Assembly (NCBI GenBank): GCA_037443025.1
Contig: JBBIPD010000001.1
Span: 1 to 39,022 of the forward strand
Reading direction: 5' to 3'
Source: Chloroflexota bacterium
GTDB lineage: Bacteria > Chloroflexota > Anaerolineae > Anaerolineales > UBA4823
DNA: 39,022 nt
Every line of letters begins with the position of its first letter. Position 1 is the stretch's first letter. Of the stretch, positions 2,290 through 24,047 are shown one piece after another. The notes beneath the pieces were generated by a model, which was not told where the DNA came from, did not search any database, and saw only the letters and a program-made list of their open reading frames with translations. Made by a program: the position numbers and the translations under genes.

Positions 2290-3153
2290 ATGGACAACAT
2301 GCCTGTCTTCCCCTTGCAACCGCTCAGAGAGCGCAGTTTTGTGTTTCGGGGAAAAGAGATCAAAACCGCTGACCTGCCCGATAACCAGGGCTATGTTTCA
2401 TTTTATAGTCTGTGCGACGCCTTTGGTTTGGATCGGCGGGCGCAGAAAAAAAGATTGGAACGCCAGGGCGGTTATTTTCGCGAGTACACTGCCCTGATCA
2501 CGCTCTCCACCCCCGGCGGTCCGCAGGCTACCCTGTGCCTGCTGGCGGCGGCGGTGCCGCTTTTTCTGACCGGCGTGCAGTTGGAGCGGGTGGCAGATGT
2601 GCAAGCGCGCGAGCTGTTGCGCGCCTTCCTGGATGAGGCTTTGGATGTGCTGGCAGAGCATTTTGGCATCTCGGAGCGCGGCGAGATGCGCTTCCTGCGC
2701 GAGGCGGTGGCGCGCATGGTGGCGGAGCAGGAGGCTTTTGATGCCCGCATTGAGGGCATCGAAAAAAAAGTAGAGGCGGAGCTGGCGGAGATTCGCCAGG
2801 CGCAGGATGAGAAGGTGCAGCAAATCCGCGAGGCCTTTGCCGGGCTGCGCGGAGAAGTGCGCCAGATTGGCGGACCCAAGGAACGCCTGACGCCTGAGCA
2901 GCTGGGTCAGCTCCGCGAGACGGTCAACACCCTGGGGGTGATGCTGCAAGAGCTGGGTGAAACGAACCCCTACGCAGGGATTTACGCCTCCATCTTCCGC
3001 ATGACCGGCATTGCCCGCTCGGAGCATATAGCCCAGCAGGATTTCCCGCGCGTGCTGGCGTTTCTGGACAAACAGATTGAAGCGGTGAGCAAGCGGCTGG
3101 AAGCGCAACGAGCGAAGAACTCAACTGAAGCCGGTGAGACCGATAGCCGTTAA
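2290..3153 (+). CDS. Phage antirepressor-like protein (P22_AR N-terminal-like domain, coiled-coil middle, ORF11CD3-like C-terminus)
   Basis: The N-terminus FVFRGKEIKTADLPDNQGYVSFYSLCDAFGLDRRAQKKRLER...GGPQATLCLLAAAVPLFLTGVQLERV follows the P22 antirepressor N-domain pattern, recalled from memory. The middle is rich in E/A/R/Q heptads. GAGAGG SD sits upstream of the ATG. Confidence 0.55.
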   Translation: MDNMPVFPLQPLRERSFVFRGKEIKTADLPDNQGYVSFYSLCDAFGLDRRAQKKRLERQGGYFREYTALITLSTPGGPQATLCLLAAAVPLFLTGVQLERVADVQARELLRAFLDEALDVLAEHFGISERGEMRFLREAVARMVAEQEAFDARIEGIEKKVEAELAEIRQAQDEKVQQIREAFAGLRGEVRQIGGPKERLTPEQLGQLRETVNTLGVMLQELGETNPYAGIYASIFRMTGIARSEHIAQQDFPRVLAFLDKQIEAVSKRLEAQRAKNSTEAGETDSR

Positions 3154-3180
3154 CTGTCGAGTCAGCAGTAAATAAACATC

Positions 3181-3209
3181 AAGGGTCTACCCTTTGTGGG
3201 TAGACCCTT
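3181..3209. repeat. Perfect hairpin-forming inverted pair of the GGGTCTACCC motif (AAGGGTCTACCC tttgt GGGTAGACCCTT)
   Basis: Core copies lie at 3183-3192 and 3198-3207. The 12-bp arms are perfect, and the pair starts 28 nt after the stop of 2290-3153. Confidence 0.85.
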
Positions 3210-3241
3210 GATGTGATCTCGGGCATGCTGCGCTCCTGGAG

Positions 3242-3309
3242 ATGCGGGGCTGTGATGACCCCGCATGTGGGGATTGGGGTGAAGATGCGGGGTCATGGCG
3301 ACCCTGCAT
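3242..3309 (+). repeat. Two tandem hairpins (ATGCGGGG..CCCCGCAT at 3242-3266; ATGCGGGGTC..GACCCTGCAT at 3285-3309), 43-nt period
   Basis: Direct repeat of AGATGCGGGG...CATGTG units, each internally palindromic. Non-coding position. Confidence 0.6.
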
Positions 3310-3343
3310 GTGTCGCATTATAGCACGCGGGGCATACTTGCGG

Positions 3344-3367
3344 AGACCTCTCAAGAGGTTTTTTTTC
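3344..3367 (+). terminator. Intrinsic terminator-like stem-loop followed by a T8 run
   Basis: Sequence is AGACCTC tcaa GAGGTTT followed by TTTTTT. The T-run is only on the plus strand. It lies about 190 nt downstream of the 2290-3153 stop. Confidence 0.5.
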
Positions 3368-3386
3368 CAGCCGGGTATAAAGCGTA

Positions 3387-3406
3387 GAACAGGCTTTAGC
3401 CTGTTC
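3387..3406. repeat. REP-like palindrome GAACAGGCT tt AGCCTGTTC
   Basis: Perfect 9-bp arms. It has the same architecture as AACCGGCT tt AGCCGGTT at 33653-33670. Confidence 0.6.
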
Positions 3407-3466
3407 ACACCATAAGAATTCAGGCTGGTGGGGGAGCGCCTTTCAGCGGGCTTTCTGCGGCTTTAT

Positions 3467-3558
3467 GGGTCTACCCTTATTTTCTCTTTGGGTAGACCTT
3501 TTAGGGTCTACCTTGACAAAATATAGGTAGACCCTGTATAATGCCTTTGGGTCTACCC
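3467..3558. repeat. Iteron-like cluster: five alternating-orientation copies of GGGTCTACCC
   Basis: Copies lie at 3467-3476 (forward), 3490-3499 (reverse, 9/10), 3504-3513 (forward, 9/10), 3525-3534 (reverse, 9/10) and 3549-3558 (forward). Confidence 0.85.
3513..3542 (+). promoter_or_regulatory. Near-consensus sigma70-type promoter TTGACA-18 nt-TATAAT embedded in the iteron cluster
   Basis: TTGACA lies at 3513-3518 and TATAAT at 3537-3542. One motif copy (3525-3534) sits in the spacer and others flank both hexamers. The promoter points toward parA (ATG 3901). Confidence 0.55.
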
Positions 3559-3593
3559 TTGATAAACGTTCGGCGCCTTTTCCGCGATCGCTT

Positions 3594-3823
3594 TTCCCCT
3601 CCTGCTCCCCGGGGTGGGGGAGGGGAAAGGATTCACCGCTGAGACGCAGAGAACGCGGAGGTTAAAGATCAATGCTGAGTAAGCTGAGTTTTTATGTAAT
3701 CCCTCCGCCACATGGGCATCGAATGAATTCGACGCCTGATATGGAAAACAGGCTGAAGCATGTTGGAATCTGTAACCCGTTTCAACGGGTTTGGGGATGG
3801 CAGCCCGCAATTCATTCGCGGGC
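3594..3823. repeat. Cluster of short REP-like hairpins in the parA leader
   Basis: Four hairpins: TTCCCCTCC..GGAGGGGAA (3594-3627); GCATCGAAT ga ATTCGACGCC (about 3716-3736), an inverted copy of the element at 33579-33602; AACCCGTT tc AACGGGTT (3774-3791); GCCCGC..GCGGGC (3803-3823). Confidence 0.55.
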
Positions 3824-3900
3824 GATGCGCTAGCCACATGCACGGCGCTGAAAAAACCCTGCGCGCTTTGTAAACTCTGTGGTAAAAAAAGGATTTTTTT

Positions 3901-4689
3901 ATGACGGTTTTTGCGGTTGTCAATCAAAAAGGCGGGGTGGGCAAGACGGTGACCGCGGTCAACCTGGCGCACGGTTTCGCCCTGCGCGGCTATCGCACCC
4001 TGTTGGTGGACCTCGACCCGCAGGGCAATGTCGCCGACTGCCTGGGGCTTCCCCCCGGCAATGACCTCTACCGCCTGATCTTCCCCGACGACGCGGTGCG
4101 CCTGCCCCTGGCGCTGGCAGCCTGCGGCAGCGGTCGGGAGAACCTGGACGTGGTGCGCTCCGACCGCTCCAGCGCCAATCTGAAGGTCGCCATCGGCTCG
4201 CTGCCCGGACCGCGCGAGTTCATCCTGGATGATGTCCTGGTCAACGCGCCCTACGAGGTCGTCATCCTGGATTGCGCCCCCTCGGTGGACATTTTGCACA
4301 CCCTGGCGGTGGTGGCGGCGCACTATCTGCTCATCCCCACCCGCCTCGACCAACTGGCGGTGAAGGGCGTGCGGGATATGCTCGCCACGCTCAAGTCGCT
4401 GGAGCGGGTGACCACCTGCCAGCTCGGCGCCATCATCCCCACCTTTTACGACCGCACCACCAACGAGAGCTACCTGCAGCTCAAGCACCTGGTGAAGAAT
4501 TTTCAAAACTACGTCTGGCCTCCCATCCCCCAGGACGTGGTCTGCCGCGAGTCCACCCGCTTCGGCAAGACCCTGTGGGAATACGCCCCCAACACGCGCG
4601 CCCTGACCGGCTACACCGATCGGGCGGGGAGGTTGATTGGCGGCTACCGCCAGATCGTTGAGCGGGTGGAGGAAGGATTGATGCAATGA
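3901..4689 (+). CDS. parA: ParA/Soj-family partition ATPase (262 aa)
   Basis: Deviant Walker A VNQKGGVGKTVTAVNLA, then LLVDLDPQGN, then Walker B-like VILDCAPS. The stop overlaps the next start (ATGA at 4686-4689). Confidence 0.9.
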   Translation: MTVFAVVNQKGGVGKTVTAVNLAHGFALRGYRTLLVDLDPQGNVADCLGLPPGNDLYRLIFPDDAVRLPLALAACGSGRENLDVVRSDRSSANLKVAIGSLPGPREFILDDVLVNAPYEVVILDCAPSVDILHTLAVVAAHYLLIPTRLDQLAVKGVRDMLATLKSLERVTTCQLGAIIPTFYDRTTNESYLQLKHLVKNFQNYVWPPIPQDVVCRESTRFGKTLWEYAPNTRALTGYTDRAGRLIGGYRQIVERVEEGLMQ

Positions 4690-5141
4690 GCCCAGCCAAG
4701 CGCCAGCCCAAGGACGATGAAGACAGCTTCATCCGTTTTGAAGAAGCGCCGCCCATGCCCGACCCCGCTGTGAGCGCCCTGTTGGCGCGCACCGAGCGCC
4801 GCCAGGCGGAGGCGCACCTGAGTCACAAGGAGCGGGAGAAGAAGAAGAAAGAGCGGGAGAAGATCCGCGCCCGCCGTCCCTATCACACCACCTATGACCT
4901 GCCGGTGGAGTTGCGCCAGCGCATCAAGGAACTGGCGGAGCAGCACGGCGTGCCTGCCAGCCAGCTCGCCACCCTGGGTTTGCTGCGCTTTGTGGAGGAC
5001 CTGGCGGCGCGGCGGCTGGACCTGACGGCGCATAAAGTGCCCTCGCGCAGCCCGCGCTACGACTTCAACCTGGTGATTTCGATGGAAGAGTACCCCGCCA
5101 CCTTTGCCGTCCCGCGGCGGGGCAAGAGGAAGCAGTCTTAG
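4686..5141 (+). CDS. Ribbon-helix-helix (CopG/ParG-like) protein, putative centromere-binding partner of ParA (151 aa)
   Basis: Translationally coupled to parA. It has a K/E/R-rich N-terminal tail. The RHH pattern is TTYDLPVELRQRIKELAEQHGVPASQLATLGLLRFVEDL (beta strand plus two helices). The stop codon abuts a GGGTCTACC motif. Confidence 0.6.
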   Translation: MSPAKRQPKDDEDSFIRFEEAPPMPDPAVSALLARTERRQAEAHLSHKEREKKKKEREKIRARRPYHTTYDLPVELRQRIKELAEQHGVPASQLATLGLLRFVEDLAARRLDLTAHKVPSRSPRYDFNLVISMEEYPATFAVPRRGKRKQS

Positions 5142-5165
5142 GGTCTACCTTATAGGGTAGACCCT
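5140..5165. repeat. Inverted pair of the GGGTCTACCC motif at the 3' end of the partition module
   Basis: Copies lie at 5141-5150 (forward, 9/10) and 5155-5164 (reverse), with a 4-nt gap between the cores. It overlaps the TAG stop at 5139-5141. Confidence 0.8.
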
Positions 5166-5223
5166 GAATCGCGGTTTGCAAAACTTGAGATGCGCCTTCC
5201 CCAATCGGATTATAATCAACCCT

Positions 5224-5505
5224 ATGGACAGGGATTTGCTCATCCAGCGCCTGCAAGTAGCTTTATCCGCCGTTCCGGGCGTTTGCCTGGGATACCTGTT
5301 TGGCTCGCAGGTGGGTGAGGCGACCGGTCCGATGAGCGACGTAGATTTAGGCGTTGTGCTGGAGGGCGCTGAAGGTAGTCTCGAGGTCCAATCGGCGCTG
5401 TCTCACCAATTGGGAAAGGTGGTCCAGCCGTTGCCCATTGATGTGATTCTTCTCAGAGATGCGCCGAAAGACAACCTTGACAACCCAGACCAGGAGTCGC
5501 GATGA
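5224..5505 (+). pseudogene. MNT-type minimal nucleotidyltransferase, apparently C-terminally truncated (93 aa)
   Basis: GYLFGSQVGEATGPMSDVDLGVVL matches the GS-x9-12-D-x-D polymerase-beta-type NTase motif. The usual C-terminal helix after IDVILLRDAP is replaced by KDNLDNPDQESR. The ORF ends in an ATGA overlap with the next gene. No HEPN partner is present. ATG 5224 is preferred over the track start 5176. Confidence 0.5.
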
Positions 5506-6407: not shown

Positions 6408-6509
6408 TAGACAGATTTCTCAAAGCGGCAACACCGATCGCCGCCCAGGCGCCGATCGAGTGCGATTTCTCAGCCTGTTCTCTCTCAATAGTTGATATGG
6501 AGGCAAAAT

Positions 6510-7043
6510 ATGGGTAAAGGCGGCGATGTAGACATGGATGTGGATGCAAATATCGATTCGTCGAACAGCGTCGAAATCGTCGGGTTGGACGATATCGGGA
6601 TGCGCATGGAGCTCGTTGTCCCTGAGCCAATCCGCACCGAAGGGCGCAACGAGTTTGCCATCACCGAGCCAATCCGCATGCAGAATGAAATCTCAGCCGA
6701 TCTGGATGTTGATACCACCATGGATATCAAGCCTATCCAGCTCAGCAACGATATAGACCTGGATATCCGACCGGTGGTGATGGATCTGTGCTTCAAGCTG
6801 GAATTTGGCGCACCCCCGCCCACCTGCATTCGCCAGCCCTATAGCCACCACTTCGGAATTACCCTGTTCGGCATGGAGGTGCTGGGGTTCAACTTTTCAG
6901 GCGAATCGCGCATCATCGTGGATGAACTGCCCAAGAAACCGCAGGTCGTCCTGGGAGGCAGCCATGGCGGCAAGCATGTCGCCGGCGGTCGCTCGCAGGG
7001 GAAAAGCGGTTCCGAGGACAGTCTGCGGATTCGATTCGATTAG
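6510..7043 (+). CDS. Hypothetical acidic-repeat protein (177 aa), first gene of the operon
   Basis: GGAGG at 6499-6503 lies 6 nt before ATG 6510 (track ORF starts at 6492). The N-terminal half is Asp-rich with internal repeats (VPEPIRTEGRNEFA / ITEPIRMQNEISA; DLDVDTTMDIKPI / DIDLDIRPV). The C-terminus is Gly/basic. There is no signal peptide or TM helix and no family I can name. Confidence 0.6.
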   Translation: MGKGGDVDMDVDANIDSSNSVEIVGLDDIGMRMELVVPEPIRTEGRNEFAITEPIRMQNEISADLDVDTTMDIKPIQLSNDIDLDIRPVVMDLCFKLEFGAPPPTCIRQPYSHHFGITLFGMEVLGFNFSGESRIIVDELPKKPQVVLGGSHGGKHVAGGRSQGKSGSEDSLRIRFD

Positions 7044-7054
7044 GAGGCGCAGCC

Positions 7055-7888
7055 ATGCCTGCCAAGAAGAAAGTCGCCGGTGTTGAAGCCGTGGAGAGCC
7101 CGGGCGAAAAGCCCATTATCTTGATGGGGCAGCCGGGCGCTCTCAAGGGCGAGTTGTTCCTGCACAATCCAGGAGAAGGGCGCATGGTCTTCAGAGGGGC
7201 TGAACTGCGCAGCCGTGAAGCGGAGATGCTCAAAACAGGTCGGGCGGTGGAGCAATGGATGGTCTCGCGCAAAGTGCCTGCCGTGACCGTCAAACCGGGC
7301 GAGAGGCGGCGCGTCCCACTGCGCTTTGCCCTCGACCCCACCACACCCCCCGGCGAGTATCACGCCCTGCTCCAGATGGCAGACCGAAGCTGGCAAGTTA
7401 TTTTCCAGGTGACCGAGCGCATCGCTCTCGAAATCTCCCCCGCCGTGCTGGTGATTCATAATCGTCCTGGCTCCACCGCGGTCAAGCAAATCGTCCTCAG
7501 GAATGCCGGCAATGTCGAACTGACCATTGAGGAAATCTCAGCCGTCCCCCTGGACGACGAGCTAGTCCAGTGCCGCATCCTCAGGGCGGTGGCGGCGGCG
7601 ATTGGCTCTCAGGAGGAGAGCAAGCTGGATGACATCCTGACCGAGTTTGCCCATCAGTCCAAAGCCGTCCTGGACCAGGCTGGCATCCTGCGCGTGCGCA
7701 ATCGCTCCGGCAGATTTACCTTGCAGCCGGGCGAAGTGCGCCGCATCGAAATCGAGATACGGCTGCCCGAGTCGTTAGAAAAACGCAGCCGCTATCGAGC
7801 CGTTCTTCCAATCTACAACGCCGATCTCACCTTCTCCATCACCCCGTCATTAGAAGGTCAGGCGCCCAATAAACCCGCAGGAAACTAG
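7055..7888 (+). CDS. Hypothetical protein with two beta-sandwich-like modules (277 aa)
   Basis: AGGAGG at 7042-7047 overlaps the upstream stop. Strand-turn patterns are typical of Ig-like/ASH/CARDB-type domains (VTVKPGERRRVPLRFALDPTTPPGEYHALL; VKQIVLRNAGNVELTIEEIS; FTLQPGEVRRIEIEIRLP). No signal peptide. Confidence 0.6.
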   Translation: MPAKKKVAGVEAVESPGEKPIILMGQPGALKGELFLHNPGEGRMVFRGAELRSREAEMLKTGRAVEQWMVSRKVPAVTVKPGERRRVPLRFALDPTTPPGEYHALLQMADRSWQVIFQVTERIALEISPAVLVIHNRPGSTAVKQIVLRNAGNVELTIEEISAVPLDDELVQCRILRAVAAAIGSQEESKLDDILTEFAHQSKAVLDQAGILRVRNRSGRFTLQPGEVRRIEIEIRLPESLEKRSRYRAVLPIYNADLTFSITPSLEGQAPNKPAGN

Positions 7889-7953: not shown

Positions 7954-8676
7954 ATGGATGACCAACATGAACAATATAGAACTCGCAGGGGGGCAAGGAT
8001 GTCCGGCGAGGGACCAACCGCGGCAGATTTGCTCGAACAAATGAATCAACTCAACCAGACGATATCCACCATGATTATGGCTGGCTTGAACCAGATTCTG
8101 GCGGCGGGCGGGGCAGCGACCACCGCCCCAGGTCGCAGGCGGGGCGAGCCGGAGCGCGAACACCGCCATAAACGCAGACACGAGGAGTGCTGCGACTGCC
8201 CGGAATGCGAGCGGGATGAGTGCTACTGCCGCTGCTGCATTGGCGACGCCGACCTGGTGATTTACGCCCGATTGTTTGAGCTGCGCGTGATTCCCATCAC
8301 TCTGGTCAACGAGCGCCGGCGAGAGAAGAAAATTCATCTAGAGCTGAGCGAGTTTAAAACCCGCGGCGGGGAGACCCTGGGCGTGAGAGGGGTGCTCCTG
8401 CCGCCGGTTGATTTTACGCTCCCGCCTTGTGGAGAGCAGAAGATCGTCATCGCCGTCGAGACCTTCCCCGGCGGCGAACAGCCCGGCGCTCAAGGCGTCT
8501 CCAGATTTCAGACCGCGGCGGAGGCGCGCGAGCTCCCGGATGTGGATGAATGTAAGGTGCTGTACGCCGATTTGCGCGTGGAGGGCTGCGATATCCGCCC
8601 CATCCGCATCGCCCTGGCGCTCCTTCCCCGCGACTGCGACGATTACGAGATTGACTGCGGTTGTAGCTGCTGCTGA
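7954..8676 (+). CDS. Hypothetical cysteine-rich protein (240 aa): helical N-terminus, Cys cluster, beta-sandwich-like core, C-terminal CGCSCC
   Basis: GAGAGGTGG SD lies just upstream. There are 8 Cys within 17 residues (CCDCPECERDECYCRCC) and 4 Cys in the last 6 residues. The core is paralogous to the middle of the 9796-10839 product. Confidence 0.65.
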   Translation: MDDQHEQYRTRRGARMSGEGPTAADLLEQMNQLNQTISTMIMAGLNQILAAGGAATTAPGRRRGEPEREHRHKRRHEECCDCPECERDECYCRCCIGDADLVIYARLFELRVIPITLVNERRREKKIHLELSEFKTRGGETLGVRGVLLPPVDFTLPPCGEQKIVIAVETFPGGEQPGAQGVSRFQTAAEARELPDVDECKVLYADLRVEGCDIRPIRIALALLPRDCDDYEIDCGCSCC

Positions 8677-8749: not shown

Positions 8750-9778
8750 ATGCAAACCAACCGTTTGGAATCCTACCTGGCAGAGTGCCGGGAGATGGTG
8801 CTGGAGGAGATTCGCGAGATTGTGCCGCAAAATCGCTATCGGGCGATTTTGTACGATCTGATTCTGGATTACCCTCTGCGCATGGGCAAAGCCTTCAGAC
8901 CTGCGCTGTGCATTGCCACCTGCCGCGCTTTGGGAGGGCGCTTGCAGGATGTCATTCACACTGCGGCGGTCCTGGAATTGCTGCACAACGCCTTCCTGGT
9001 GCATGATGATCTGGAGGATGGCTCTCTGCTGCGCCGCGGCTCTCCGACTCTGCACCAGGAATACGGCGTACCGATTGCGGTCAATGTGGGCGACGGCGCC
9101 TTTGTGCTTACCCTGCAACCCTTGCTGGATAATATGCGCCTGCTGGGGATGACCAAAGCCCTGCGCATCTTGCAGATTATCGCCCAGATGTCGCGGGAGT
9201 CGGTCGAGGGGCAGGCAGTCGAACTGGACTGGGTGCGCCAGGGCAATTGGAGCCTGCGCGACCAAGATTACTGCCTGATGGTCTATAAAAAAACCTGCTG
9301 GTACACATTCATCGCTCCCATGCAAATCGGCGGTGTGATTACCGACCTGGACGAGCGACGGATGACTTTACTGCGGCGCTACGCGAGCTACGTGGGCGTG
9401 GCGTTCCAGATACAGGATGATGTGCTTAACCTGGCGGCAGACGAGAAACGTTACGGTAAGGAGATTGGCGGCGATCTGTGGGAGGGCAAGCACACTTTGA
9501 TCTTGCTCCACATGTTGCGCAACGCTGCCCCACACGAACGTCAGCAGGCGCTGCGCAGCCTGGATAAGCCGCGCGAACAGAAGACGGAGACGGATATTGC
9601 CTTGCTTTTCGAGCTGATCCATCGCTATCGCAGCCTGAATTACGCCAGACAGGTGGCTTATCGCCTGGCAAAGAAAGCCGAAGACCTGTTGGACAGCGCC
9701 AGGGATTGGATGCCGCCGTCCGTCCATCGGGATTTCATCCACAGCATGGCGCAGCATGTCATTCACAGGGACAAATAA
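8750..9778 (+). CDS. Polyprenyl (trans-isoprenyl) diphosphate synthase, short-chain FPP/GGPP-synthase-like (342 aa)
   Basis: The first Asp-rich motif is LLHNAFLVHDDLEDGSLLRRG and the second is GVAFQIQDDVLNL (DDxxN variant). GKEIGGDLWEGKHT lies downstream. Phe at position -4 of the first motif suggests a short-chain product (inference). Confidence 0.85.
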   Translation: MQTNRLESYLAECREMVLEEIREIVPQNRYRAILYDLILDYPLRMGKAFRPALCIATCRALGGRLQDVIHTAAVLELLHNAFLVHDDLEDGSLLRRGSPTLHQEYGVPIAVNVGDGAFVLTLQPLLDNMRLLGMTKALRILQIIAQMSRESVEGQAVELDWVRQGNWSLRDQDYCLMVYKKTCWYTFIAPMQIGGVITDLDERRMTLLRRYASYVGVAFQIQDDVLNLAADEKRYGKEIGGDLWEGKHTLILLHMLRNAAPHERQQALRSLDKPREQKTETDIALLFELIHRYRSLNYARQVAYRLAKKAEDLLDSARDWMPPSVHRDFIHSMAQHVIHRDK

Positions 9779-9795
9779 AATAACAAGGAATTTCT

Positions 9796-10839
9796 ATGAC
9801 CCAGGACCCTGAAGACATTTCAAAATGGATCCAGGAATTGATCACCCTCTCCTCCCGCCAGCAGGCTCAGGCTCTCCAGCGGTTGAGCGGGCTGATTCAG
9901 CGGGTGAACAGCGGCGAACTCGACCAGAAGGCGGTGCAGCAGGAATACGCCCACTTCATCCGCGATGAATCGGCGCACTTTGTGGAGGATCTCACCCGCC
10001 TGGGATTGAGCTTCCAGACCGCTCTGCTGGAGCTGAACCGCAAATATACCGACCGATTTTTCGAAAAGGTGTTGGGGTCGAGCGCGGCTGAAACTCAGAC
10101 CGCTGACGGACAGACCGGGCGACCCAGAGAAATCGGGATTGTGCTGCGCGGCGTGAGCGGCGAGGAGCTGTTGAAATCCTTCGTGATTGAGAACAAGCGC
10201 AACGACGAGGAGACGGTGACCTTCCTGGTCTCCGAGTTCACCGACGAGGTCGGCGGGGAGGCTTTTCGCCCGCCGTTGCAAATTCAGCCGCCGCGCCTGG
10301 CGCTGCGTCCGGGGGAGGAGCGCATCGTGTCCATCCGTTTGCCTCTGCTGCCCGAGCTGTTTAAGGCGCAGCACACCTATCATGCAACCATCCTTGCCCG
10401 CGGGCATGTAGATGTGGTCCTGGCGCTGCGGGTCGAGGTGAGCAGTCCCGAAATCCATATCAAAGTGGACAAGGAAAACAGCCAGAGCGTCGAGCCGGGG
10501 ATGGTCATCCACGAACCTCCCGCCACGGAGAAGAAACCTGCCCGGAGCGCTGCCCTGGAGGGGAACGGCGGGGTATCCACTGGCGATGATCTGACCCAAA
10601 TCAAGGGCATCGGTCGGGCGTACGCAGAGAGGTTGTATGCGGCGGGCGTGCGCAGCTTTGCCGCTCTTTCCAGGCTGTCGCCTGAGCGGCTGCGGGAGAT
10701 ATTGGGAGACGCCGGCAGTCAGCGGGCGCAGCGGGAAGGATGGATCGAGCAAGCCATGCGGGCGACAGGGGGCAAAAAGGCTGGCAGGGGAGGGTTGCAG
10801 CGGCAGGCGGCTTCAGGCTCGAAGGGGGAGGTCGAATGA
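9796..10839 (+). CDS. Hypothetical protein: helical N-terminus, beta-sandwich-like middle, C-terminal helix-hairpin-helix (347 aa)
   Basis: The middle (VIENKRNDEETVTFLVSEFTDEVGGEAF..PPRLALRPGEERIVSIRL) parallels the 7954-8676 core. The C-terminal LTQIKGIGRAYAERLYAAGVRSFAALSRLSPERL is an HhH motif. The tail is Gly/basic. Confidence 0.65.
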   Translation: MTQDPEDISKWIQELITLSSRQQAQALQRLSGLIQRVNSGELDQKAVQQEYAHFIRDESAHFVEDLTRLGLSFQTALLELNRKYTDRFFEKVLGSSAAETQTADGQTGRPREIGIVLRGVSGEELLKSFVIENKRNDEETVTFLVSEFTDEVGGEAFRPPLQIQPPRLALRPGEERIVSIRLPLLPELFKAQHTYHATILARGHVDVVLALRVEVSSPEIHIKVDKENSQSVEPGMVIHEPPATEKKPARSAALEGNGGVSTGDDLTQIKGIGRAYAERLYAAGVRSFAALSRLSPERLREILGDAGSQRAQREGWIEQAMRATGGKKAGRGGLQRQAASGSKGEVE

Positions 10840-11234
10840 CCACCGAAACCGAACCGGCTGCCATCCGCCTCACCCTGCGCGAGGAGAACGACCTCATCTC
10901 GGATTTTCTGCTCCGGGGACAGCGCTTCCTGATGAAGCACCCGCAGGCATCGCGGGCTTTGATTTTGAGCCTGGTGGAAGAGGGGCGCCGCTTCGCCGCC
11001 ACGCCCGAGGGGCAGCGTTGGCTGGAGGGGCTGGCTGGCTCCGAGCTGGTCAAGCGCGGCGTTCTCGTCTGGGAGGCTTACGGCTTGGACCTGCTGTTGG
11101 AATCGGAGCCGGTGATCACCCCCTCCGCCTGGCTGGAGCTGATGCTGACGGCGCTTGCCAACCCCGACCTGGAGAGCCTCCTCTCCATGCTGATTGTAGA
11201 AGAAATGCGCAGTGGAAATGTCGCCAATATATGA
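10836..11234 (+). CDS. Hypothetical small helical protein (132 aa)
   Basis: ATG 10836 overlaps the upstream TGA (ATGA), with GGGGGAG SD. The track ORF start 10740 lies inside the preceding gene. No recognisable family. Confidence 0.5.
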   Translation: MTTETEPAAIRLTLREENDLISDFLLRGQRFLMKHPQASRALILSLVEEGRRFAATPEGQRWLEGLAGSELVKRGVLVWEAYGLDLLLESEPVITPSAWLELMLTALANPDLESLLSMLIVEEMRSGNVANI

Positions 11235-11556: not shown

Positions 11557-12606
11557 ATGGACCTGATGCCCCAGGTGATTGCCCTGACCGATTACTTCCG
11601 CCTGCCGCTCAGCATCGAGAAGGGAGCCCACCGGCATAAAGAGTGGCACCACTTTTGCGTTGTCCATCCCGCTATCCAGGCGATAGTCAATCTGAGCCTG
11701 ATGCGGGCTGCCGGAAATGAGGCGGGCTGGACTGCGCGCCTGATCGCTCTGGTGAAGGACGAGGGCGGGTGGGACGGGGAGGTGGACACCATCCCCAGCC
11801 GGGATGTGCGCGCCAGGCGGGGGAAGCTCGACCTCACCTTTGGGCACAACACGCTGATTTACCAGGATGGGCGCTACAATCTTTCGTTGGCGCTGGAGAG
11901 CCGTCCCATCACCCTGCAACTCCAATTCCAGCCAGCCAGCTACCCGCTTATGCGGCGCAATACGCCCATAGCAAGCGGAAGAATCAACTGGGTTGTTGTG
12001 CCGCGCCTGCTCGCGACGGGGACGATTGTGGTTGGGCGGCGCGTGCATCGTCTGGATAACATGCCCGCCTATCACGATCACAACTGGGGGAGTTGGTCGT
12101 GGGGAGAAGATTTCTCCTGGCAGTGGGGGTATGCCGTCCCGCAGCAAATTGAGTCGCCCTGGAGTGTGGTCTTTGACCGCATGACGAACCGCGGGCGCAA
12201 CGCTGTCCTGGAGTTGAAGCTCTCCTTATGGAAGAACCAAAAGCTGCACCGGCTGTACATGCAGGATGAAGTTGGCATCCAGCAAAGCGGTTTTGTCACC
12301 CAAACCCGCCAGGGCGGTTTCGCCGGGGATGCTCGGCTGGCGAAGTTCCCCCGCCCAATGGCGCTGCTGGCTCCCGAGCGGGCGACGGATGTGCCTCGCC
12401 GGTTCGAGATAACGGCTGAGCGCGGCAGCGACCGGCTGGCGTGTCGCTTCATGCCGGATGATGTGGCGCAGATTATCCTCCCCAACGATACCGACCTGGG
12501 CGTGACCATCATCAACGAGGTGAGCGGGGTGATGAGCGTGGAGGGCGCGGTATCCGGTGAAGCGGTTTTCATGGAAGGCAGGGGATTTTTTGAGTTTCTT
12601 ACCTGA
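11557..12606 (+). CDS. Hypothetical protein, possibly lipocalin-like CrtC/AttH/tocopherol-cyclase superfamily (349 aa)
   Basis: HKEWHHFCVV near the N-terminus and MPAYHDHNWGSWSWGEDFSWQWGY mid-protein recall the EWWY... and (D/E)xNWG signatures of that superfamily. This comes from memory, not a profile search. Confidence 0.6.
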   Translation: MDLMPQVIALTDYFRLPLSIEKGAHRHKEWHHFCVVHPAIQAIVNLSLMRAAGNEAGWTARLIALVKDEGGWDGEVDTIPSRDVRARRGKLDLTFGHNTLIYQDGRYNLSLALESRPITLQLQFQPASYPLMRRNTPIASGRINWVVVPRLLATGTIVVGRRVHRLDNMPAYHDHNWGSWSWGEDFSWQWGYAVPQQIESPWSVVFDRMTNRGRNAVLELKLSLWKNQKLHRLYMQDEVGIQQSGFVTQTRQGGFAGDARLAKFPRPMALLAPERATDVPRRFEITAERGSDRLACRFMPDDVAQIILPNDTDLGVTIINEVSGVMSVEGAVSGEAVFMEGRGFFEFLT

Positions 12607-13036
12607 TAGCGACCGTTTCTCTCATTTCTTGCGGGCATCGTTGGATGTGATGCGGGTCGAGTGCCGCCCTGCTTATGAGCGGTTATGCGAGCTTCTGGAG
12701 GGCAGGCAGGTGCATCTTGCGGTGGACGGCGAGGAGGTCGTTCTCGGTTTTGCCGCAGACGGCGTTACCTTGCTTTCCGAAGCGACGCTGCCCCCGATGG
12801 CGAAGTTGTCGTTCTCCCGCCGGACGATTCTCGACCTGGTGGATGGGTCTATCAGCCTCCAGGATGGCATCATCGAAGGGCGAGTGGGAGTGCAGGGAGG
12901 CATCCAGCAGTTGCTGCTGTTTCACGAGGGTTGGTTGACCTATCTGGGCGGTGCCGCCCGTTGTCCCTCGTTTCCCTACCTGCTTGAGCGCTTCCGCTAT
13001 GCAACAGAGAGGGCGGCGAGTCCGCTGGGGGTGTAG
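12557..13036 (+). CDS. SCP2-like (sterol/lipid carrier) domain protein (up to 159 aa)
   Basis: VHLAVDGEEVVLGFAADGVTL....SFSRRTILDLVDGSISLQDGIIEGRVGVQGGIQQLLLF follows the SCP2 pattern (..tl.dl..G.l....a...G.v.v.G). The start is uncertain: GTG 12557 gives a 50-nt overlap, TTG 12590 a 17-nt overlap, and ATG 12650 is also possible. Confidence 0.5.
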   Translation: MKRFSWKAGDFLSFLPDSDRFSHFLRASLDVMRVECRPAYERLCELLEGRQVHLAVDGEEVVLGFAADGVTLLSEATLPPMAKLSFSRRTILDLVDGSISLQDGIIEGRVGVQGGIQQLLLFHEGWLTYLGGAARCPSFPYLLERFRYATERAASPLGV

Positions 13037-18456: not shown

Positions 18457-19233
18457 TCAACTTTCGCCGCGCCGAAAGGAAAAATAGAACTGGCTGTATT
18501 CGTTGTGGGCGACAGAGTGGGAATATTCAACCACCTCGCCCTCCGCGGTGTAGGCAACGCTTTCGCTGAAGATCGAGGGCGAGCCTGGTTCTGCGCCCAA
18601 CAGGTTTGCCTGCTCCTCGGTTAGCGTCACCGCTTTGAGGGTCTGATCAATGCGGGCGACGATCACTCCGTATTCCCGGCTCATGCACTCGTAGAGAGAG
18701 CCGTGCTCGAGAGCGGTATTGCTCTCCAGGTTGGGGAAACGCTGGCTGGAGAGATAGGCGGTTTCATGCAACAGGGGGATGCCGTCCGCCAGGCGCAGAC
18801 GCACGATCTCTATCACCGGCTGCGCCTCAGCCAGCAGGAGGCGCTGGGCGATAAACGCTCTGGCTGGGATCACCCGGCTGCTCAGCAGGCGGCTGGACGG
18901 TCTGCGACCGATGGCAAGCATTTCCTGGGTGAAGCTGAGATGGCTGGGGATGATGGCGGCAATGGTGGGGTGGGAGACGAAGGTGCCTACCCCATGGCGG
19001 CGGCTGAGCCATCCCTGGCGCACCAGGTCGTCCAGGGCGCGGCGCACGGTGAGGCGGCTCACCCCGTACCTCCCCGCCAGTTCCCACTCAGGGGGCACGG
19101 CGGTCCCTGGCTTGAGCCAGCCGCTGAGGATCAACTGGCGCAGGTTGCGCTCAATTTGTTCATAAAGCGGAAGCTTATCCTGCCGGTCAATATAAAAACG
19201 ATCGAGAGATCTGTGCTGGGCTAGAGCCGCCAT
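18457..19233 (-). CDS. GntR-family transcriptional regulator, HutC/UTRA subfamily (258 aa)
   Basis: The winged HTH is LPLYEQIERNLRQLILSGWLKPGTAVPPEWELAGRYGVSRLTVRRALDDLVRQGWL. A C-terminal UTRA-like effector domain follows. Confidence 0.85.
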   Translation of the reverse strand: MAALAQHRSLDRFYIDRQDKLPLYEQIERNLRQLILSGWLKPGTAVPPEWELAGRYGVSRLTVRRALDDLVRQGWLSRRHGVGTFVSHPTIAAIIPSHLSFTQEMLAIGRRPSSRLLSSRVIPARAFIAQRLLLAEAQPVIEIVRLRLADGIPLLHETAYLSSQRFPNLESNTALEHGSLYECMSREYGVIVARIDQTLKAVTLTEEQANLLGAEPGSPSIFSESVAYTAEGEVVEYSHSVAHNEYSQFYFSFRRGES

Positions 19234-19310
19234 TCAAACTCCGCGGGCTGAACTGGCAGAGATGAGGTTTCGATTGTGCGCGTGATGATTGAAAGAAAAG
19301 GAAATGTTGT

Positions 19311-19362
19311 ATAGATGTATTGACATCTATCTATATTATAGAGAGAAAGATATTAAAGTCAA
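19311..19362 (-). promoter_or_regulatory. Minus-strand promoter TTGACT-16 nt-TATAAT with a 20-bp perfect palindrome operator (ATAGATGT attg ACATCTAT) at the predicted start site
   Basis: The -35 hexamer is the complement of 19357-19362 and the -10 hexamer the complement of 19335-19340. The palindrome lies at 19311-19330, about 80 nt upstream of the GntR start codon. Confidence 0.5.
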
Positions 19363-19741
19363 GCGCTTTCATCCGCCGCTGGGCGGCAAGACCGCAAGCG
19401 ACGGTACCTGGGGTTAAGTTTATTTTAAGAGCGGATGTTTTGGGCTGATCATCCTGCGAGGCTCTGCCTGGAAGCGCATATTCTCTTGGCGGGTTGCATT
19501 TGTCTCAAACCATCATCGCGCTAATTTGCGTCCCCCAAACATTCCAAAGAGGTATGTTCTTAAGCCAGAAGCAATGCCCATGATGCCATCAAGGTCGGAG
19601 ATTGTCTCGCAGAAGTCGCTCTCAATAACGCCGTGAGAACTGACACATACCTAAGAATCACTATATGAATTATGAGTATATATAGACATCTTATTTAGCA
19701 TGATTTATGGTCTTGTATAGGCGCGGGTTGGTAATCTCAGC

Positions 19742-20203
19742 CTAGTGGTCTATTGTGGGTAATGGACGAAAGGGAGGCCGGATCAGAGGGTGAGCCAGCC
19801 AGATAATGACGATCAAGATTACGAAGTTTACTGCAATTAAGCCATAAAGTACCCGTAGCACAACGCGGTACTCGTTCTCCTTTTGATCCAGCTCAACCTC
19901 TCTTTTGTTAAGCTCTTCTTCACGGGTTTCTATATTTGCCTGGCGTTTGTCCAGATCGGCTTTTCTCTGGTTGAGCTCGTCTTCACGGGTTTCTATATTT
20001 GCCTGACGTTCGTCTAGCTCGGTTTTCAGCCTTTCCAATTGCATTGCATCATCCTTATTCGCCTCGTTCTGGACACATGACGTTGGTTGGGAAGCTCCTT
20101 GGATACTACCAAAGCTTGTCGGGTCAATGAATTTTTGTCCCACTAGTATGAACAACCACCCAATTGTGATCAGCAACAATGCGTATCCTGTAGTCACTTT
20201 CAT
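19742..20203 (-). CDS. Membrane-anchored coiled-coil protein with internal 21-aa tandem repeat (153 aa)
   Basis: It has an N-terminal TM helix (YALLLITIGWLFILVG), a C-terminal TM helix (LYGLIAVNFVILIVIIWLA) and a central ERQANIETREDELNQRKADLDKRQANIETREEELNKRE. AT-rich codon usage. Confidence 0.6.
   Translation of the reverse strand: MKVTTGYALLLITIGWLFILVGQKFIDPTSFGSIQGASQPTSCVQNEANKDDAMQLERLKTELDERQANIETREDELNQRKADLDKRQANIETREEELNKREVELDQKENEYRVVLRVLYGLIAVNFVILIVIIWLAHPLIRPPFRPLPTIDH
19912..20037. repeat. Two tandem 63-bp units inside the coiled-coil gene
   Basis: The 25-nt identical core CTTCACGGGTTTCTATATTTGCCTG occurs at 19918 and 19981, with similar flanks. Confidence 0.8.
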
Positions 20204-20475
20204 CTCTCACCTCCGATAAATCTTCGGATCTCTGATGAAGTTAGCAGATAGCCTTGTCTCATTTTTATTTTAGCTAAATGCTTAGTGACTTAGAAGTTAG
20301 GCGGGATGGCAATTTACTTGGTGAATGTACACGAACTATTACCCCTCAAGCCCAGTGGAGATGGGGATTGAGAATAGAAAAAAAACACTGCGGGATTAAT
20401 TTAAATGCAGCTTGGCTGGGTTTAAGACAAGGCAAAAATATAGATTCTCTAGCGAAGAAGTTATCTCGCCGAGTT

Positions 20476-21201
20476 CTAATCGCGACAGTACTTTACTCGA
20501 TTATTGCGATACCAATTAGTCAAATCCTTGAGCTGGATGGTCTCCCTGCTGTTATGTATATCCCCCATGTCTGCTGGCAGGATGAACGGCGCTAGTGCGT
20601 CGCGTATATCGCCGATCCAATTTTGGATAGATTCTGATGTACGATCCATTTCTTTACCCATCTGGGCGTAGGTTTTTCCCTCATTGAGTAGTTTTAGGGT
20701 TTGCCATTGCTTATCGCTTAGCGGGTCGGGAGTTGAAGGAATTGCCAATGGCAGGTAGTCGGCAGGAGTTGGGCTGATCACTAAATAACCTTTATTCACA
20801 ATCTCAACTACCTCTGCAAAGCTTATCCGCTCGTCCCTTCGGCGACAGTATATGAAGGATATCCTAGCTACCAACAGTTGCCTGAGTACCAGATCATAAT
20901 CGATCGTCTTATGACCTTGAGCAGTGTACGCCAGGATTGGGTAGTTCTCAAATCGCTCTCGCAGTTCAATAGCCAGTCTTATTCCCTCTTCAGCATGGTC
21001 TTCATCCAAGGGTGGAAGTCCTAGGTCGACGGCAAAGAAATCGAATTGCTCCTGTCTCCTACTCGCTTGTTCGATCCGAAAAAACGTGTCCTGGCGGTCA
21101 TACGCCCGCGTTACATTCCACCCGTTTTCCTTCAAGCTCCTGGTAAGGGTCTCTGCTTGGCTAGATTGATCTTCAATCAACAGTAACCTTTTCGAATCCA
21201 T
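20476..21201 (-). CDS. Response regulator, receiver domain plus LuxR/FixJ-type HTH (241 aa)
   Basis: The start was moved to ATG 21201 (GGAGGGAA SD), giving MDSKRLLLIEDQ. The phospho-acceptor context is FFAVDLGLP. The HTH is LSDKQWQTLKLLNEGKTYAQMGKEMDRTSESIQNWIGDIRD. Confidence 0.75.
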   Translation of the reverse strand: MDSKRLLLIEDQSSQAETLTRSLKENGWNVTRAYDRQDTFFRIEQASRRQEQFDFFAVDLGLPPLDEDHAEEGIRLAIELRERFENYPILAYTAQGHKTIDYDLVLRQLLVARISFIYCRRRDERISFAEVVEIVNKGYLVISPTPADYLPLAIPSTPDPLSDKQWQTLKLLNEGKTYAQMGKEMDRTSESIQNWIGDIRDALAPFILPADMGDIHNSRETIQLKDLTNWYRNNRVKYCRD

Positions 21202-21223
21202 ATTCCCTCCCACCAAAACAAAC

Positions 21224-23545: not shown

Positions 23546-23699
23546 CTTGAAAACCTCTGAAGGACATCAAGTTGTACACACGCACGTCTATTATATATAA
23601 TCATCGGACCAGTTCATATACCGTCTGAGTATTAATATTTTAATCCCTGGGTGAAGAATATTTACTGTTTGACTTTTGCGGGAATGGCTAGAATATGGG

Positions 23700-23933
23700 C
23701 TAGACGAACTGAAATACATCAGCTGGATAGTTAGGAAAGAGCTGCTTATGCAGTTGACGCCGATTGAAACAATAAGGAGCTTCAAGGCTACCTTCAAATG
23801 GATAAGCCCAGGCTTTGGGTTCTGGCGTGTATTTGATTTGGCAAAACATGCAGCTGTAGCGCTGACTGCCGCTGCCTGTTTTCCCTACTCGGTTTTGGAC
23901 TTCTGCTCGATGACATCTTGGACATTCAATCAT
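23700..23933 (-). pseudogene. IS1-family-like transposase N-terminal zinc-ribbon fragment (77 aa ORF, no catalytic domain)
   Basis: CPRCH..x12..QRYSCMFCQIKYTPEPK matches the CxxC...QRYxCxxC zinc-ribbon of InsA/IS1-type transposases, recalled from memory. The ORF then degenerates and no DDE region follows. Confidence 0.4.
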
Positions 23934-24047
23934 GCCTTTATTTTAGCCCGATTTTTAGCCAGCCCCCGGGCTAATCGCTTTGTGCTTGAGCTGCAATCTG
24001 CCGCGCAACGTTTTTCGCATGTGGTAAACTTTCTCAAGGAGAGGCTC

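Follow-up and report, generated by a model that had tools for sequence, protein, structure and literature searches.

A conserved bacterial cysteine-rich protein with a modelled Ig-like fold, encoded in a four-gene module beside lipid-type enzymes

Described systems closest to protein C

Closely spaced cysteines in CxC and CC arrangement are of the metallothionein type; metallothioneins (SmtA/BmtA, plant type 2 metallothioneins) are small proteins (<∼10 kDa) with 15–30% cysteine and no independent fold. We considered a cysteine-rich protein, protein C, encoded in a window of 39 022 nt (the whole stretch of DNA analysed) of a Chloroflexota genome; the source is a hot-spring organism, and the two associated DNA runs both come from hot springs. 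Protein C shares with metallothioneins dense CxC, CC and CxxC motifs, His-rich tracts and, as its sequence suggests, likely metal–thiolate clusters. Unlike metallothioneins it has 240 amino acids, only 6.7% cysteine and a modelled fold; its cysteines are fixed around an Ig-like domain, and its gene belongs to a four-gene module rather than to a metal-homeostasis locus. It had no match to the metallothionein family in Pfam or NCBIfam.

Domains of the PapD-like/ASH/MSP type, found in pilus chaperones, CEP192, HYDIN and VAP, generally work by binding a short peptide or strand of a partner protein. Residues 98–229 of protein C are modelled in the same fold class; in distinction from these domains, protein C is bacterial and predicted to be cytoplasmic, and at the sequence level it belongs to none of the Pfam families PapD_N, Motile_Sperm and ASH. 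None of the templates matched is described with cysteine clusters at the domain borders, where protein C has them.

Rab proteins end in a CC or CXC geranylgeranylation signal. A -CC/-CXC end is likewise conserved in the family of protein C, and the next gene in the window is GGPPS-like. However, protein C is modelled as an Ig-like sandwich, has no Ras-family match in Pfam and carries an internal copy of the terminal motif; REP and RabGGTase were not detected. Nor is a prenyl-donor gene an obligate neighbour, with no synthase within 8 kb in 24 of 44 loci, although a donor might be made from elsewhere in the genome. The ferredoxin-type 4Fe–4S pattern (CxxCxxCxxxCP, Fer4) is also absent from protein C, the spacing being CxCxxCxxC...CxCxCC.

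Non-enzymatic proteins encoded beside enzymes with hydrophobic products, as seen here, are known from granules and droplets (the phasin PhaH) and from encapsulin family 2 operons with polyprenyl-transferase cargo; the likeness is one of gene logic only. The C-terminal HHH/DUF4332 region of protein E, another product of the module, reached an E-value of 1.4e-7 with the NCBIfam PhaH model (below cut-off), and protein D, the GGPPS-like neighbour, scored 179 bits with the encapsulin cargo polyprenyl transferase model, for which the cut-off is 450. Phasin, encapsulin and BMC shell families were absent in Pfam and NCBIfam searches.

Gene, fold and conserved cysteines of protein C

The gene of protein C occupies positions 7954..8676 of the forward strand, on which all features described below also lie, with an ATG start codon, a TGA stop codon and a translation of 240 amino acids; a purine-rich stretch, GAGAGGTGG, is read from the sequence 5′ of the start codon. 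Cysteines are at residues 79, 80, 82, 85, 90, 92, 94, 95, 159, 200, 212, 228, 235, 237, 239 and 240, 16 in all, against a mean of 1.24% cysteine in the window's remaining 36 long ORFs. At that background rate the probability of at least 16 cysteines in 240 residues is 8e-8, and that of at least eight in 17 is 1e-11; the cysteine richness of protein C is not due to chance. Judged from the aligned sequences, conservation is a stronger argument for these cysteines than the composition statistics.

The preliminary description of this locus, made from the DNA sequence, had pointed out eight cysteines within 17 residues, a basic stretch ahead of them and a CGCSCC terminus, and we saw all three. The basic, His-containing stretch HRHKRRHEE covers residues 70–78 (8161..8187) and corresponds to a variable, often His-rich tract in homologues. 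The N-terminal cluster, CCDCPECERDECYCRCC, covers residues 79–95 (8188..8238) and in the homologue alignment ends in an internal CxCxCC (residues 90–95, 8221–8238); the terminal CxCxCC, CGCSCC, makes up residues 235–240 (8656..8673). The prediction of a cytoplasmic protein agreed with a crude hydropathy test, since protein C has no TM-like stretch and, by an equally crude check of the sequence, no signal-peptide-like N-terminus; no 19-residue stretch in it or in eight neighbouring products reached a Kyte–Doolittle value of 1.6. A moderately amphipathic N-terminal helix (μH up to 0.42) is predicted for residues 23–46 (8020..8091) from the DSSP string of the AF2 model, with pLDDT 54–67; the region around it is poorly conserved, falling into variable alignment columns.

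We found 163 homologues of protein C at E ≤ 1e-3. The family comprises 230 clusters at 50% identity and is spread across at least six phyla, yet it is rare in the window's own class; the lineages are mostly mesophilic, from soil and marine habitats. No match was found in Pfam (at E ≤ 0.01), NCBIfam or PADLOC, and a PDB profile search gave nothing beyond a chance match (E 0.98). Those parts of the full-text literature open to searching held nothing on the family, the string ‘CxCxCC’ turning up in unrelated papers. Protein C is a real bacterial protein without annotation. Longer fused forms were not found in a fusion search (weak evidence), and tblastn against plasmid and phage collections gave no match.

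Twelve cysteines are invariant or nearly so across 157 aligned homologues, each being present in 149–157 of them, while the intervening residues vary. Eight of them make up an internal and a terminal motif of identical CxCxCC pattern; the remaining four stand singly. In the internal motif C90, C92 and C94 occur in 157/157 homologues and C95 in 156/157; the cysteines upstream of it are less fixed (C85 in 150/157, C79 in 138/157, C82 in 125/157), and there the alignment shows the CxCxxCxxC extension, with CxxCxxC-like spacing in many homologues. The four single loop cysteines, C159 (8428–8430), C200 (8551–8553), C212 (8587–8589) and C228 (8635–8637), are each present in 157/157. Within the terminal motif C235 and C240 occur in 157/157, C239 in 156/157 and C237 in 149/157; the exceptions at position 237 are three sequences with His (Actinomycetota loci, CQH[EG]CC) and five sphingomonad-type sequences shifted to CCxxCC.

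In a set of 146 representatives from farther away in the family, 120 sequences finish in CC followed by no more than three residues and eight have other Cys-rich tails (CxC-type or similar); the remaining 18 are cut short ahead of the last strand. A Cys-rich C-terminus is present in every homologue keeping that strand. At the other end, the 40 residues preceding the cluster contain at least four His in 60/159 homologues and at least eight in 30/159, with a maximum of 23. Charged residues are conserved as well, and adjoin the cysteine positions: in a basic loop N119 and R123 are invariant, with R121, R122 and E124 conserved at ≥90%; of the acidic residues D196 is invariant, with D198 and D227 at ≥90%.

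In the AF2 model residues 98–229 (8245..8640) are confidently predicted as an Ig-like β-sandwich of the PapD-like/ASH/MSP type, a seven-strand s-type class, with pLDDT >90 across most of residues 100–170 and 200–225. At the C-terminal tail (235–240) pLDDT falls below 50; a poorly modelled tail beside a confident sandwich is expected where a cofactor is missing. Structural alignment of residues 98–229 by VIA-align gave Z-scores of 10.1 for 8jmw, 9.6 for 6fvi (CEP192 ASH) and 9.1 for 6tqr (VAP-A MSP); with 7ptb, 1row and 1grw included, Z ranged from 10.1 to 8.3, with rmsd of 2.1–3.4 Å over 82–101 aligned residues. Foldseek matched Caf1M (4e-5), FimC and PapD, all within 4e-5 to 3e-4, and the Atlas neighbours were weakly Ig-like (scores 0.76–0.80). 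As the fold is common, it says little on the function of protein C. The DSSP string of protein C by itself is compatible with six, seven or eight passes; we adopted the seven-pass topology by analogy with the MSP and ASH templates.

The four-gene module and its enzyme neighbours

Neighbours were counted over 44 loci, a synthase being scored as present if located within 8 kb. The constant core is a set of four genes, A, B, C and E, with C third. Protein A (6492..7043, 183 aa as listed; the ATG at 6510 is the likelier start) is an acidic protein. Its N-terminal PxPxKT[ED]-like repeats are variable; its core, which includes a long β-hairpin, and its GLRIRLG-like C-terminal peptide are conserved. 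The mean pLDDT of its AF2 model is 59.9, with values >90 in the hairpin (111–143) and a poor model elsewhere. Gene A is upstream of C in 40/44 loci, the other four being cut by contig ends. Protein B (7055..7888, 277 aa) appears from alignment and a weak Pfam match (Cep192_D3, E 0.001, below cut-off) to have two Ig-like repeats; many of its homologues have a basic tail, and the gene is present in 41/44 loci, again with contig ends accounting for the misses. Protein E (9796..10839, 347 aa; HHH_5 3.8e-9, DUF4332 2.9e-6) has a helical N-terminus, a putative Ig-like middle and, in the window's lineage, a C-terminal HHH/DUF4332 domain, while its homologues show weak PapD_N and fn3_5 matches. An E-like gene follows C in 43/44 loci; in the 44th the contig ends at C. 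The core would thus consist of three Ig-like proteins (B, C and E, with B and E assigned from sub-threshold matches) and one hairpin/repeat protein (A).

The order of the genes is the same in Chloroflexota, Actinomycetota, Acidobacteriota, Gemmatimonadota and Alpha-, Beta- and Gammaproteobacteria. We saw no significant relation of C to E or B by BLASTP, or of C to B by profile comparison with hhalign. The module matches no curated protein family and, by sequence, no solved structure, and the full-text literature covered by our searches was blank on it. An Rfam scan of positions 5500–13 500 gave no match and thus no riboswitch clue to a ligand; promoter and terminator scans did not rise above shuffled sequences. 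Genes for ParA, RHH, nucleotidyltransferase and P22-antirepressor proteins lie upstream; considered as possible members of the module, they are present in 0/44 loci.

Directly downstream of C, as the preliminary description had it, is a prenyl synthase gene (8750..9778), which starts 74 nt past C; its product, protein D, is a polyprenyl diphosphate synthase (PF00348, E 6.6e-61) of GGPPS/IdsA-like type; in NCBIfam its best models are IdsA and GGPP synthase, with no score reaching the cut-off of the model. This adjacency holds for the window; as a general link of C to prenyl synthase it does not. A polyprenyl synthase is within 8 kb in 20/44 loci and directly after C in only 5 of these 20 (six arrangements including the window); D is a flavour-specific accessory enzyme of the module. 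In 5/5 genomes tested the module-linked synthase copy was the best match.

Other genes vary with the flavour of the locus. Protein F (10836..11234, ∼132 aa), whose ATG overlaps the stop codon of E as ATGA, is confined to the synthase flavour (8/44 loci). Protein H (11557..12606, 349 aa) is a CrtC/AttH/tocopherol-cyclase-like candidate terpenoid hydratase/cyclase with a weak DUF2804 match (E 8.8e-4); its Atlas neighbours (carotenoid 1,2-hydratase, AttH and CrtC, scores 0.94–0.97) are to be taken as a lead only. It occurs in 17/44 loci, always with D (17 of the 20 synthase loci). Protein I (12557..13036, 159 aa as listed), a weak SCP2-like lipid-binding candidate (PF02036, E 0.0024, below cut-off), is present in 6/44 loci. 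Other loci have a PKS of type I or a set of DUF362, epimerase and PAP2 genes. Lipid-type neighbours are present in 40/44 loci: synthase (with or without the CrtC-like protein) in 20, PKS in 11, DUF362/epimerase in 9–11 and WS/DGAT (wax-ester synthase) in 7.

Possible roles of the conserved cysteines

Metal–thiolate sites are, on the sequence evidence, the best fit for the conserved cysteines of protein C. A metal or Fe–S site had been put forward earlier as an alternative to prenylation, and we favour this alternative in view of the His-rich tracts and the Cys-to-His exchange at position 237, even though protein C matched no known metal-binding family in Pfam, NCBIfam or the PDB profile search. 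Both this exchange and the one-place shift of the motif are typical of ligand sets and argue for metal ligands. Two observations weigh on the other side: conserved Asp residues adjoin the cysteines, which is unusual for classical Zn or Fe–S sites, and the terminal -CC/-CXC is also compatible with lipidation signals of Rab type.

We propose that protein C is a soluble, cytoplasmic PapD/ASH/MSP-type sandwich with metal–thiolate sites, acting as a structural subunit of a lipid-associated scaffold or coat; taken as a whole, this proposal seems to us about evenly poised between right and wrong. The twelve near-invariant cysteines would be ligands of Zn(II), Cu(I) or an Fe–S cluster, a choice that the sequence cannot make. 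Of the putative ligands, the internal CxCxCC would directly precede the first strand, the terminal one would follow the last, and the other four cysteines would sit in loops, with the variable CxCxxCxxC extension and the His-rich tract upstream of the internal motif. If the seven-pass topology holds, the DSSP strand order and the MSP topology would place one CxCxCC and two loop cysteines, six cysteines in total, at each pole of the domain, one pole lying beside the basic loop N119-RRRE and the other beside the acidic DVDEC/RDCD. Metal clusters at these poles would rigidify the domain and would probably join subunits. Protein C would work with A, B and E, not alone. As the module stands beside interchangeable enzymes with hydrophobic products, the most likely role of protein C, as suggested by gene neighbourhood, is to serve as a structural subunit in a scaffold or coat associated with the synthesis or storage of lipid, and it is probably part of an undescribed intracellular structure.

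One could speculate further that A, B, C and E surround a neutral-lipid inclusion with an unrecognised scaffold or coat, which would make it a new kind of bacterial lipid body; we consider this rather unlikely. The same shell genes would then be combined with swappable enzymes (isoprenoid, polyketide, wax ester or the DUF362 set). Copies of protein C might be stitched head-to-tail, metal ions being shared between the basic pole of one subunit and the acidic pole of the following one, each with six Cys, and the GLRIRLG strand and short repeats of A might dock on PapD-like domains by strand addition.

An electron-transfer function, with the cysteines holding [4Fe–4S] or [2Fe–2S] clusters and protein C feeding electrons to those enzymes of the locus that modify lipids, appears unlikely. 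CxxCxxC-like spacing does occur upstream in many homologues, and one flavour includes DUF362 proteins, which are often associated with Fe–S domains; the His at position 237 would also be compatible, as Cys-to-His exchange occurs in Fe–S ligand sets. However, neither Fer4 nor any other Fe–S family was matched in Pfam or NCBIfam, CxCxCC and vicinal CC are atypical for such sites, the three enzyme flavours have no obvious common redox need, and the His-rich tracts point more to Zn, Ni or Cu than to Fe–S.

The cysteines could alternatively be paired in disulfides within or between molecules, serving to harden an assembly or to detect oxidation; we regard this as distinctly improbable. Some thermophiles keep cytoplasmic disulfides and the window comes from a hot-spring organism, but the family is mostly mesophilic, from soil and sea, and a protein with no signal peptide or TM segment would stay in the reducing cytoplasm. 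The invariant cysteines are even in number (12) and lie at or near domain boundaries; on the other hand, vicinal CC disulfides are rare, and disulfides would leave the His tracts and the Cys-to-His exchange unexplained.

A bacterial S-prenylation module had been suggested for this locus, a suggestion made to depend on homologues keeping the Cys tail. They do keep it: 150/164 homologues have CxCxCC with no more than three residues after it. The terminal CC/CXC, and perhaps other cysteines, would be prenylated or acylated with the product of the neighbouring enzyme, which would anchor protein C in a membrane or lipid body in the manner known for the C-termini of Rab proteins and for eukaryotic cysteine-string proteins. 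Besides the tail, found in every homologue with the last strand, the dedicated GGPPS-like subgroup accompanying the module in 20/44 loci (and giving the best match in 5/5 genomes) and the supply of an activated lipid donor by every flavour speak for lipidation. The conserved tail keeps prenylation conceivable, though we consider it very unlikely. A C-terminal signal leaves unexplained the identical and equally invariant internal CxCxCC and the four invariant single cysteines, and a Cys-to-His exchange at 237 is unsuited to a lipidation site. No synthase lies within 8 kb in 24/44 loci; where present, its partner resembles a terpenoid hydratase/cyclase (CrtC-like), which implies a small-molecule route. 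Protein C is not a GTPase and so has no Rab/REP recognition surface. PF00432 and PF01239 had no match in the organism's own genome; this is weak evidence, as the genome is 80% complete and the PF00432 control was silent in all 14 control genomes. The lack of a recognisable prenyltransferase in the cluster is not decisive, given that ComQ-type peptide prenyltransferases are homologues of polyprenyl synthases. The part of the literature covered by our search contained no case of endogenous bacterial protein S-prenylation. We know of none. Protein C itself is probably not lipid-tagged.

Least probable of all is that protein C is a metallothionein-like buffer for metal storage or detoxification with incidental operon partners: the CxC/CC motifs and His-rich tracts would suit such a buffer, but the cysteines occupy set positions on a folded domain of 130 residues, and the gene is tied to a four-gene module with lipid enzymes in 40/44 loci. 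Among the neighbours we saw no recurring metal transporter or metal regulator, and there is no metal riboswitch upstream.

Returning to the metal–thiolate scaffold subunit, metal binding by these cysteines, if true, would mean that an Ig-like fold is fitted with metal clusters in a new manner. A lipid-associated scaffold, if that is what the module makes, would add a new intracellular structure to those of bacteria, one whose biosynthetic cargo can be swapped, of possible interest for lipid and terpenoid engineering; S-lipidation, if true, would be the first endogenous bacterial protein S-prenylation as far as we know. The family has carriers in culture, Pacificimonas pallii WHA3, Aurantiacibacter sp. 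and Kribbella sp., and the question of the module is thus directly testable.

The cysteine-rich protein C and its family

The ORF at window positions 7954-8676 (+) encodes C, a protein of 240 aa with an ATG start and a purine-rich stretch upstream of it. The preliminary description of its sequence was accurate: a basic HRHKRRHEE stretch is followed by a cluster of 8 Cys in 17 residues, CCDCPECERDECYCRCC, and the C-terminus is CGCSCC. There are 16 Cys in total (residues 79, 80, 82, 85, 90, 92, 94, 95, 159, 200, 212, 228, 235, 237, 239 and 240). The remaining 36 long ORFs of the window have 1.24% Cys; at that rate, 16 Cys in 240 residues would occur by chance with P = 8e-8, and 8 in 17 with P = 1e-11. 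The earlier placement of C in the cytoplasm stands by a crude test, as no transmembrane-like stretch was seen in any of the nine operon products (maximum KD19 1.39) and C has no signal-peptide-like N-terminus.

C had no match in Pfam, NCBIfam or PADLOC, and a profile of 40 homologues found no sequence match in PDB; a full-text literature search gave no description of the family or its module in titles and abstract openings. A word-indexed search returned 163 proteins at E ≤ 1e-3, all of the named ones being 'hypothetical', and when 1.84 billion representatives were searched exhaustively with a profile, 230 clusters at 50% identity matched, 196 with E ≤ 1e-10. By sequence comparison, then, C represents a genuine protein family despite the lack of Pfam and NCBIfam matches.

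A pattern scan, with one genome taken per species, located 44 C loci: in Anaerolineae and Ardenticatenaceae on the Chloroflexota side; in Actinomycetota (Acidimicrobiia and others, including a Kribbella isolate); in Acidobacteriota and Gemmatimonadaceae; and in Alpha-, Beta- and Gammaproteobacteria, among them Pacificimonas pallii WHA3 and an Aurantiacibacter isolate. As C was found in only one of 300 other genomes sampled from the window's own class, its distribution is wide but patchy. Searches of plasmid and phage collections turned up no copy of C.

Conserved cysteines and the predicted fold

Conservation was counted over 157 aligned homologues out of 164 collected; seven with truncated or wrong-frame ends (L019, L023, L037, L039, L044, P0106 and P0110) were left out before alignment. 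Nine Cys were present in all 157 sequences (C90, C92, C94, C159, C200, C212, C228, C235 and C240), C95 and C239 in 156 and C237 in 149; upstream Cys were kept more loosely (C85 in 150, C79 in 138, C82 in 125). The motif set thus consists of CxCxCC twice, internal (residues 90-95) and terminal (235-240), and four single invariant Cys. The internal motif, found in 159 of the 164 homologues, always precedes [IV]GD; the stretch before it is variable and often His-rich, four or more His occurring in 60 of 159 sequences and eight or more in 30, with a maximum of 23. Position 237 is occupied by His in the sequences of three Actinomycetota loci (L011, L033 and L041; CQH[EG]CC), while its Cys is shifted by one place in five sphingomonad-type sequences (CCQACC), four of which have an extra Cys at position 226.

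Among 146 distant representatives, 98 terminate in CxCxCC plus at most three residues, 22 have another pattern with CC within the last five residues, and eight have other Cys-rich tails (CGCSC, CGCGC, CSHC, CARC etc.). The 18 that have no Cys tail are fragments or frame-shifted calls, since all of them also lack the last-strand motif.

An AlphaFold2 model built from a 40-sequence alignment (mean pLDDT 71.5) has an N-terminal helix (residues 23-46) and a beta-sandwich at ~98-229, with pLDDT >90 outside the variable loop at 171-199. The internal CxCxCC is modelled with moderate confidence (block mean 84); the terminal one is unmodelled (pLDDT <50). Foldseek and VIA-align agree that the modelled sandwich is of the PapD-like/ASH/MSP Ig-like type, with matches to the Vpr fibril domain (8jmw, Z 10.1), the CEP192 ASH domain (6fvi, Z 9.6), VAP-A MSP (6tqr, Z 9.1) and MSP (1grw, Z 8.3), as well as to Caf1M, FimC and PapD (Foldseek 4e-5 to 3e-4). 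This fold is very common and by itself says nothing about the function of C.

The strand order of MSP/ASH domains, laid over the DSSP strands of C, gives seven passes. One pole would then carry the internal CxCxCC, C159 and C212 beside the N119-RRRE loop, and the opposite pole C200, C228 and the terminal CxCxCC beside DVDEC and RDCD; the loop and both motifs are conserved in the C alignment. Six Cys per pole, with opposite charges at the two poles, would make an attractive arrangement.

Candidate roles of the cysteines

Metal-thiolate sites fit these data best, and we consider the chances of this reading to be about even. Twelve Cys are fixed with a free choice of residues in between, their spacing is of metallothionein type, a Cys-to-His exchange occurs at position 237, many homologues have His-rich tracts, the model is poor where a cofactor would sit, and of the two identical motifs one cannot be a C-terminal signal. 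The ligand set resembles that of metallothioneins, as if grafted onto a PapD-like domain; by the tests applied, C is a member of neither family. The same cysteines could instead hold a redox-active Fe-S cluster, which we regard as unlikely, or form disulfide cross-links, which seems a little less likely still.

One could also speculate, as the preliminary description did from the Cys tail and the adjoining synthase gene, that the tail is S-prenylated; a broader version of the idea is S-lipidation. That gene, D (8750-9778), does lie 74 nt downstream of C and encodes a polyprenyl synthase (PF00348, E 6.6e-61), and the tail proved to be conserved, 150 of the 164 homologues having a terminal CxCxCC plus at most three residues. 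However, lipidation leaves unexplained the internal motif, the single invariant Cys and the 24 of 44 loci that have no synthase, and C is similar to Rab tails only in its last residues. Nor was a transferase recognisable: PF00432 and PF01239 had no match in the window's own genome (80% complete), PF00432 being silent in the control as well. We thus consider S-lipidation improbable, and plain metal storage by C marginally more so.

The A-B-C-E module and its surroundings

Neighbours were counted by tblastn of the window's neighbour genes against the 44 loci; genes in the loci were simple longest-ORF calls, over-called in GC-rich DNA, and the argument uses only Pfam-confirmed families. Gene A (6492-7043) was found in 40 loci, and 41 have B (7055-7888), always in the order A, B, 5′ of C on the same strand; in the loci that miss either gene, the contig is broken off. 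Once three further E queries had been added, a gene like E (9796-10839) was found 3′ of C in 43 loci, the contig of the remaining one stopping at C.

In protein A, short PxPxKT[ED]-like repeats, whose number varies, precede a conserved core that is modelled as one long beta-hairpin (111-143, pLDDT >90) with the remainder disordered; the protein terminates in a conserved GLRIRLG-like peptide. Given this strand-like end and the three PapD-like proteins encoded alongside, docking of A on its PapD-like partners might proceed through strand addition. For B, two Ig-like repeats are predicted (a weak, sub-threshold Cep192_D3 match), and many homologues also have a long Lys/Arg/Thr-rich tail. E combines a helical N-terminus with a putative Ig-like middle (weak, sub-threshold PapD_N and fn3_5 matches in homologues); its HHH/DUF4332 end, seen in the Chloroflexota-type loci examined, is common to the NCBIfam phasin PhaH model. 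Alignments of the families show two conserved Cys in A (DLC; TC/IC within the PxTCIR region) and a moderately conserved single Cys in the DELxxCR motif of B. The stop of E and the likely start of F (10836-11234) overlap as ATGA (10836-10839) with GGGGGAGG upstream, so that F is probably ~132 aa long, shorter than its longest ORF (164 aa).

The enzymes around this core vary. The polyprenyl synthase is present in 20 loci; it lies between C and E, as in the window, in only five (L003, L004, L005, L012 and L045), and upstream on the opposite strand in Actinomycetota. Eleven loci have a ~1770-aa type I PKS directly 3′ of E (e.g. L040:9565-14889, L025:9418-14739), KS-AT-KR-ACP with a C-terminal methyltransferase; 8-11 loci have a DUF362 protein together with an NAD-dependent epimerase/dehydratase, a PAP2 phosphatase and an uncharacterised 406-aa protein; seven have a wax-ester synthase/DGAT, mostly alongside the synthase. 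At least one lipid-type neighbour occurs in 40 of the 44 loci; among the others (L002, L026, L032 and L033) three have short flanks, while L002 shows no such neighbour over 8 kb of downstream sequence. The sphingomonad-type order is 406-aa gene, PAP2, A-B-C-E, 700-aa DUF362 protein, NAD-dependent epimerase/dehydratase (L030:4454-12269, from Pacificimonas pallii WHA3, and related loci); this cultured strain would be a practical test organism.

The best NCBIfam models for D, IdsA and GGPP synthase, were all below cut-off. In five of five genomes tested the module-adjoining synthase matched the window's enzyme best (45-64% identity), most other copies being near 30%; two genomes, G301 (locus L016) and G303 (L012), have a second module-type synthase elsewhere (42-44%). 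Judged by these identities, the synthase linked to the module belongs to a dedicated subgroup. Its usual companion, in 17 loci, is H (11557-12606), which has a weak Pfam match to DUF2804 (E 8.8e-4); the Atlas neighbours of H bear the names carotenoid 1,2-hydratase, AttH and CrtC (scores 0.94-0.97). The resemblance of H to CrtC/AttH/tocopherol-cyclase-type enzymes, as yet a lead, suggests that the synthase feeds a small terpenoid, not a protein.

A constant core with interchangeable enzymes for hydrophobic products is reminiscent of other bacterial compartments with their shell-plus-cargo logic; from this neighbourhood, A-B-C-E may have a structural role tied to lipid synthesis or storage.

Just 5′ of the operon, positions 2290-5505 encode a P22 antirepressor N-domain protein, a ParA-like ATPase, whose gene overlaps that of a small RHH protein, and a nucleotidyltransferase. 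These four genes, none of which occurs in the other 44 loci, look like a mobile-element or partition-type context. A low-GC island at 19000-24000 (0.45-0.50 versus ~0.60 elsewhere), with GAF-histidine-kinase-like (773 aa), weakly response-regulator-like and small RNase Y N-terminal-like ORFs, may be foreign DNA.
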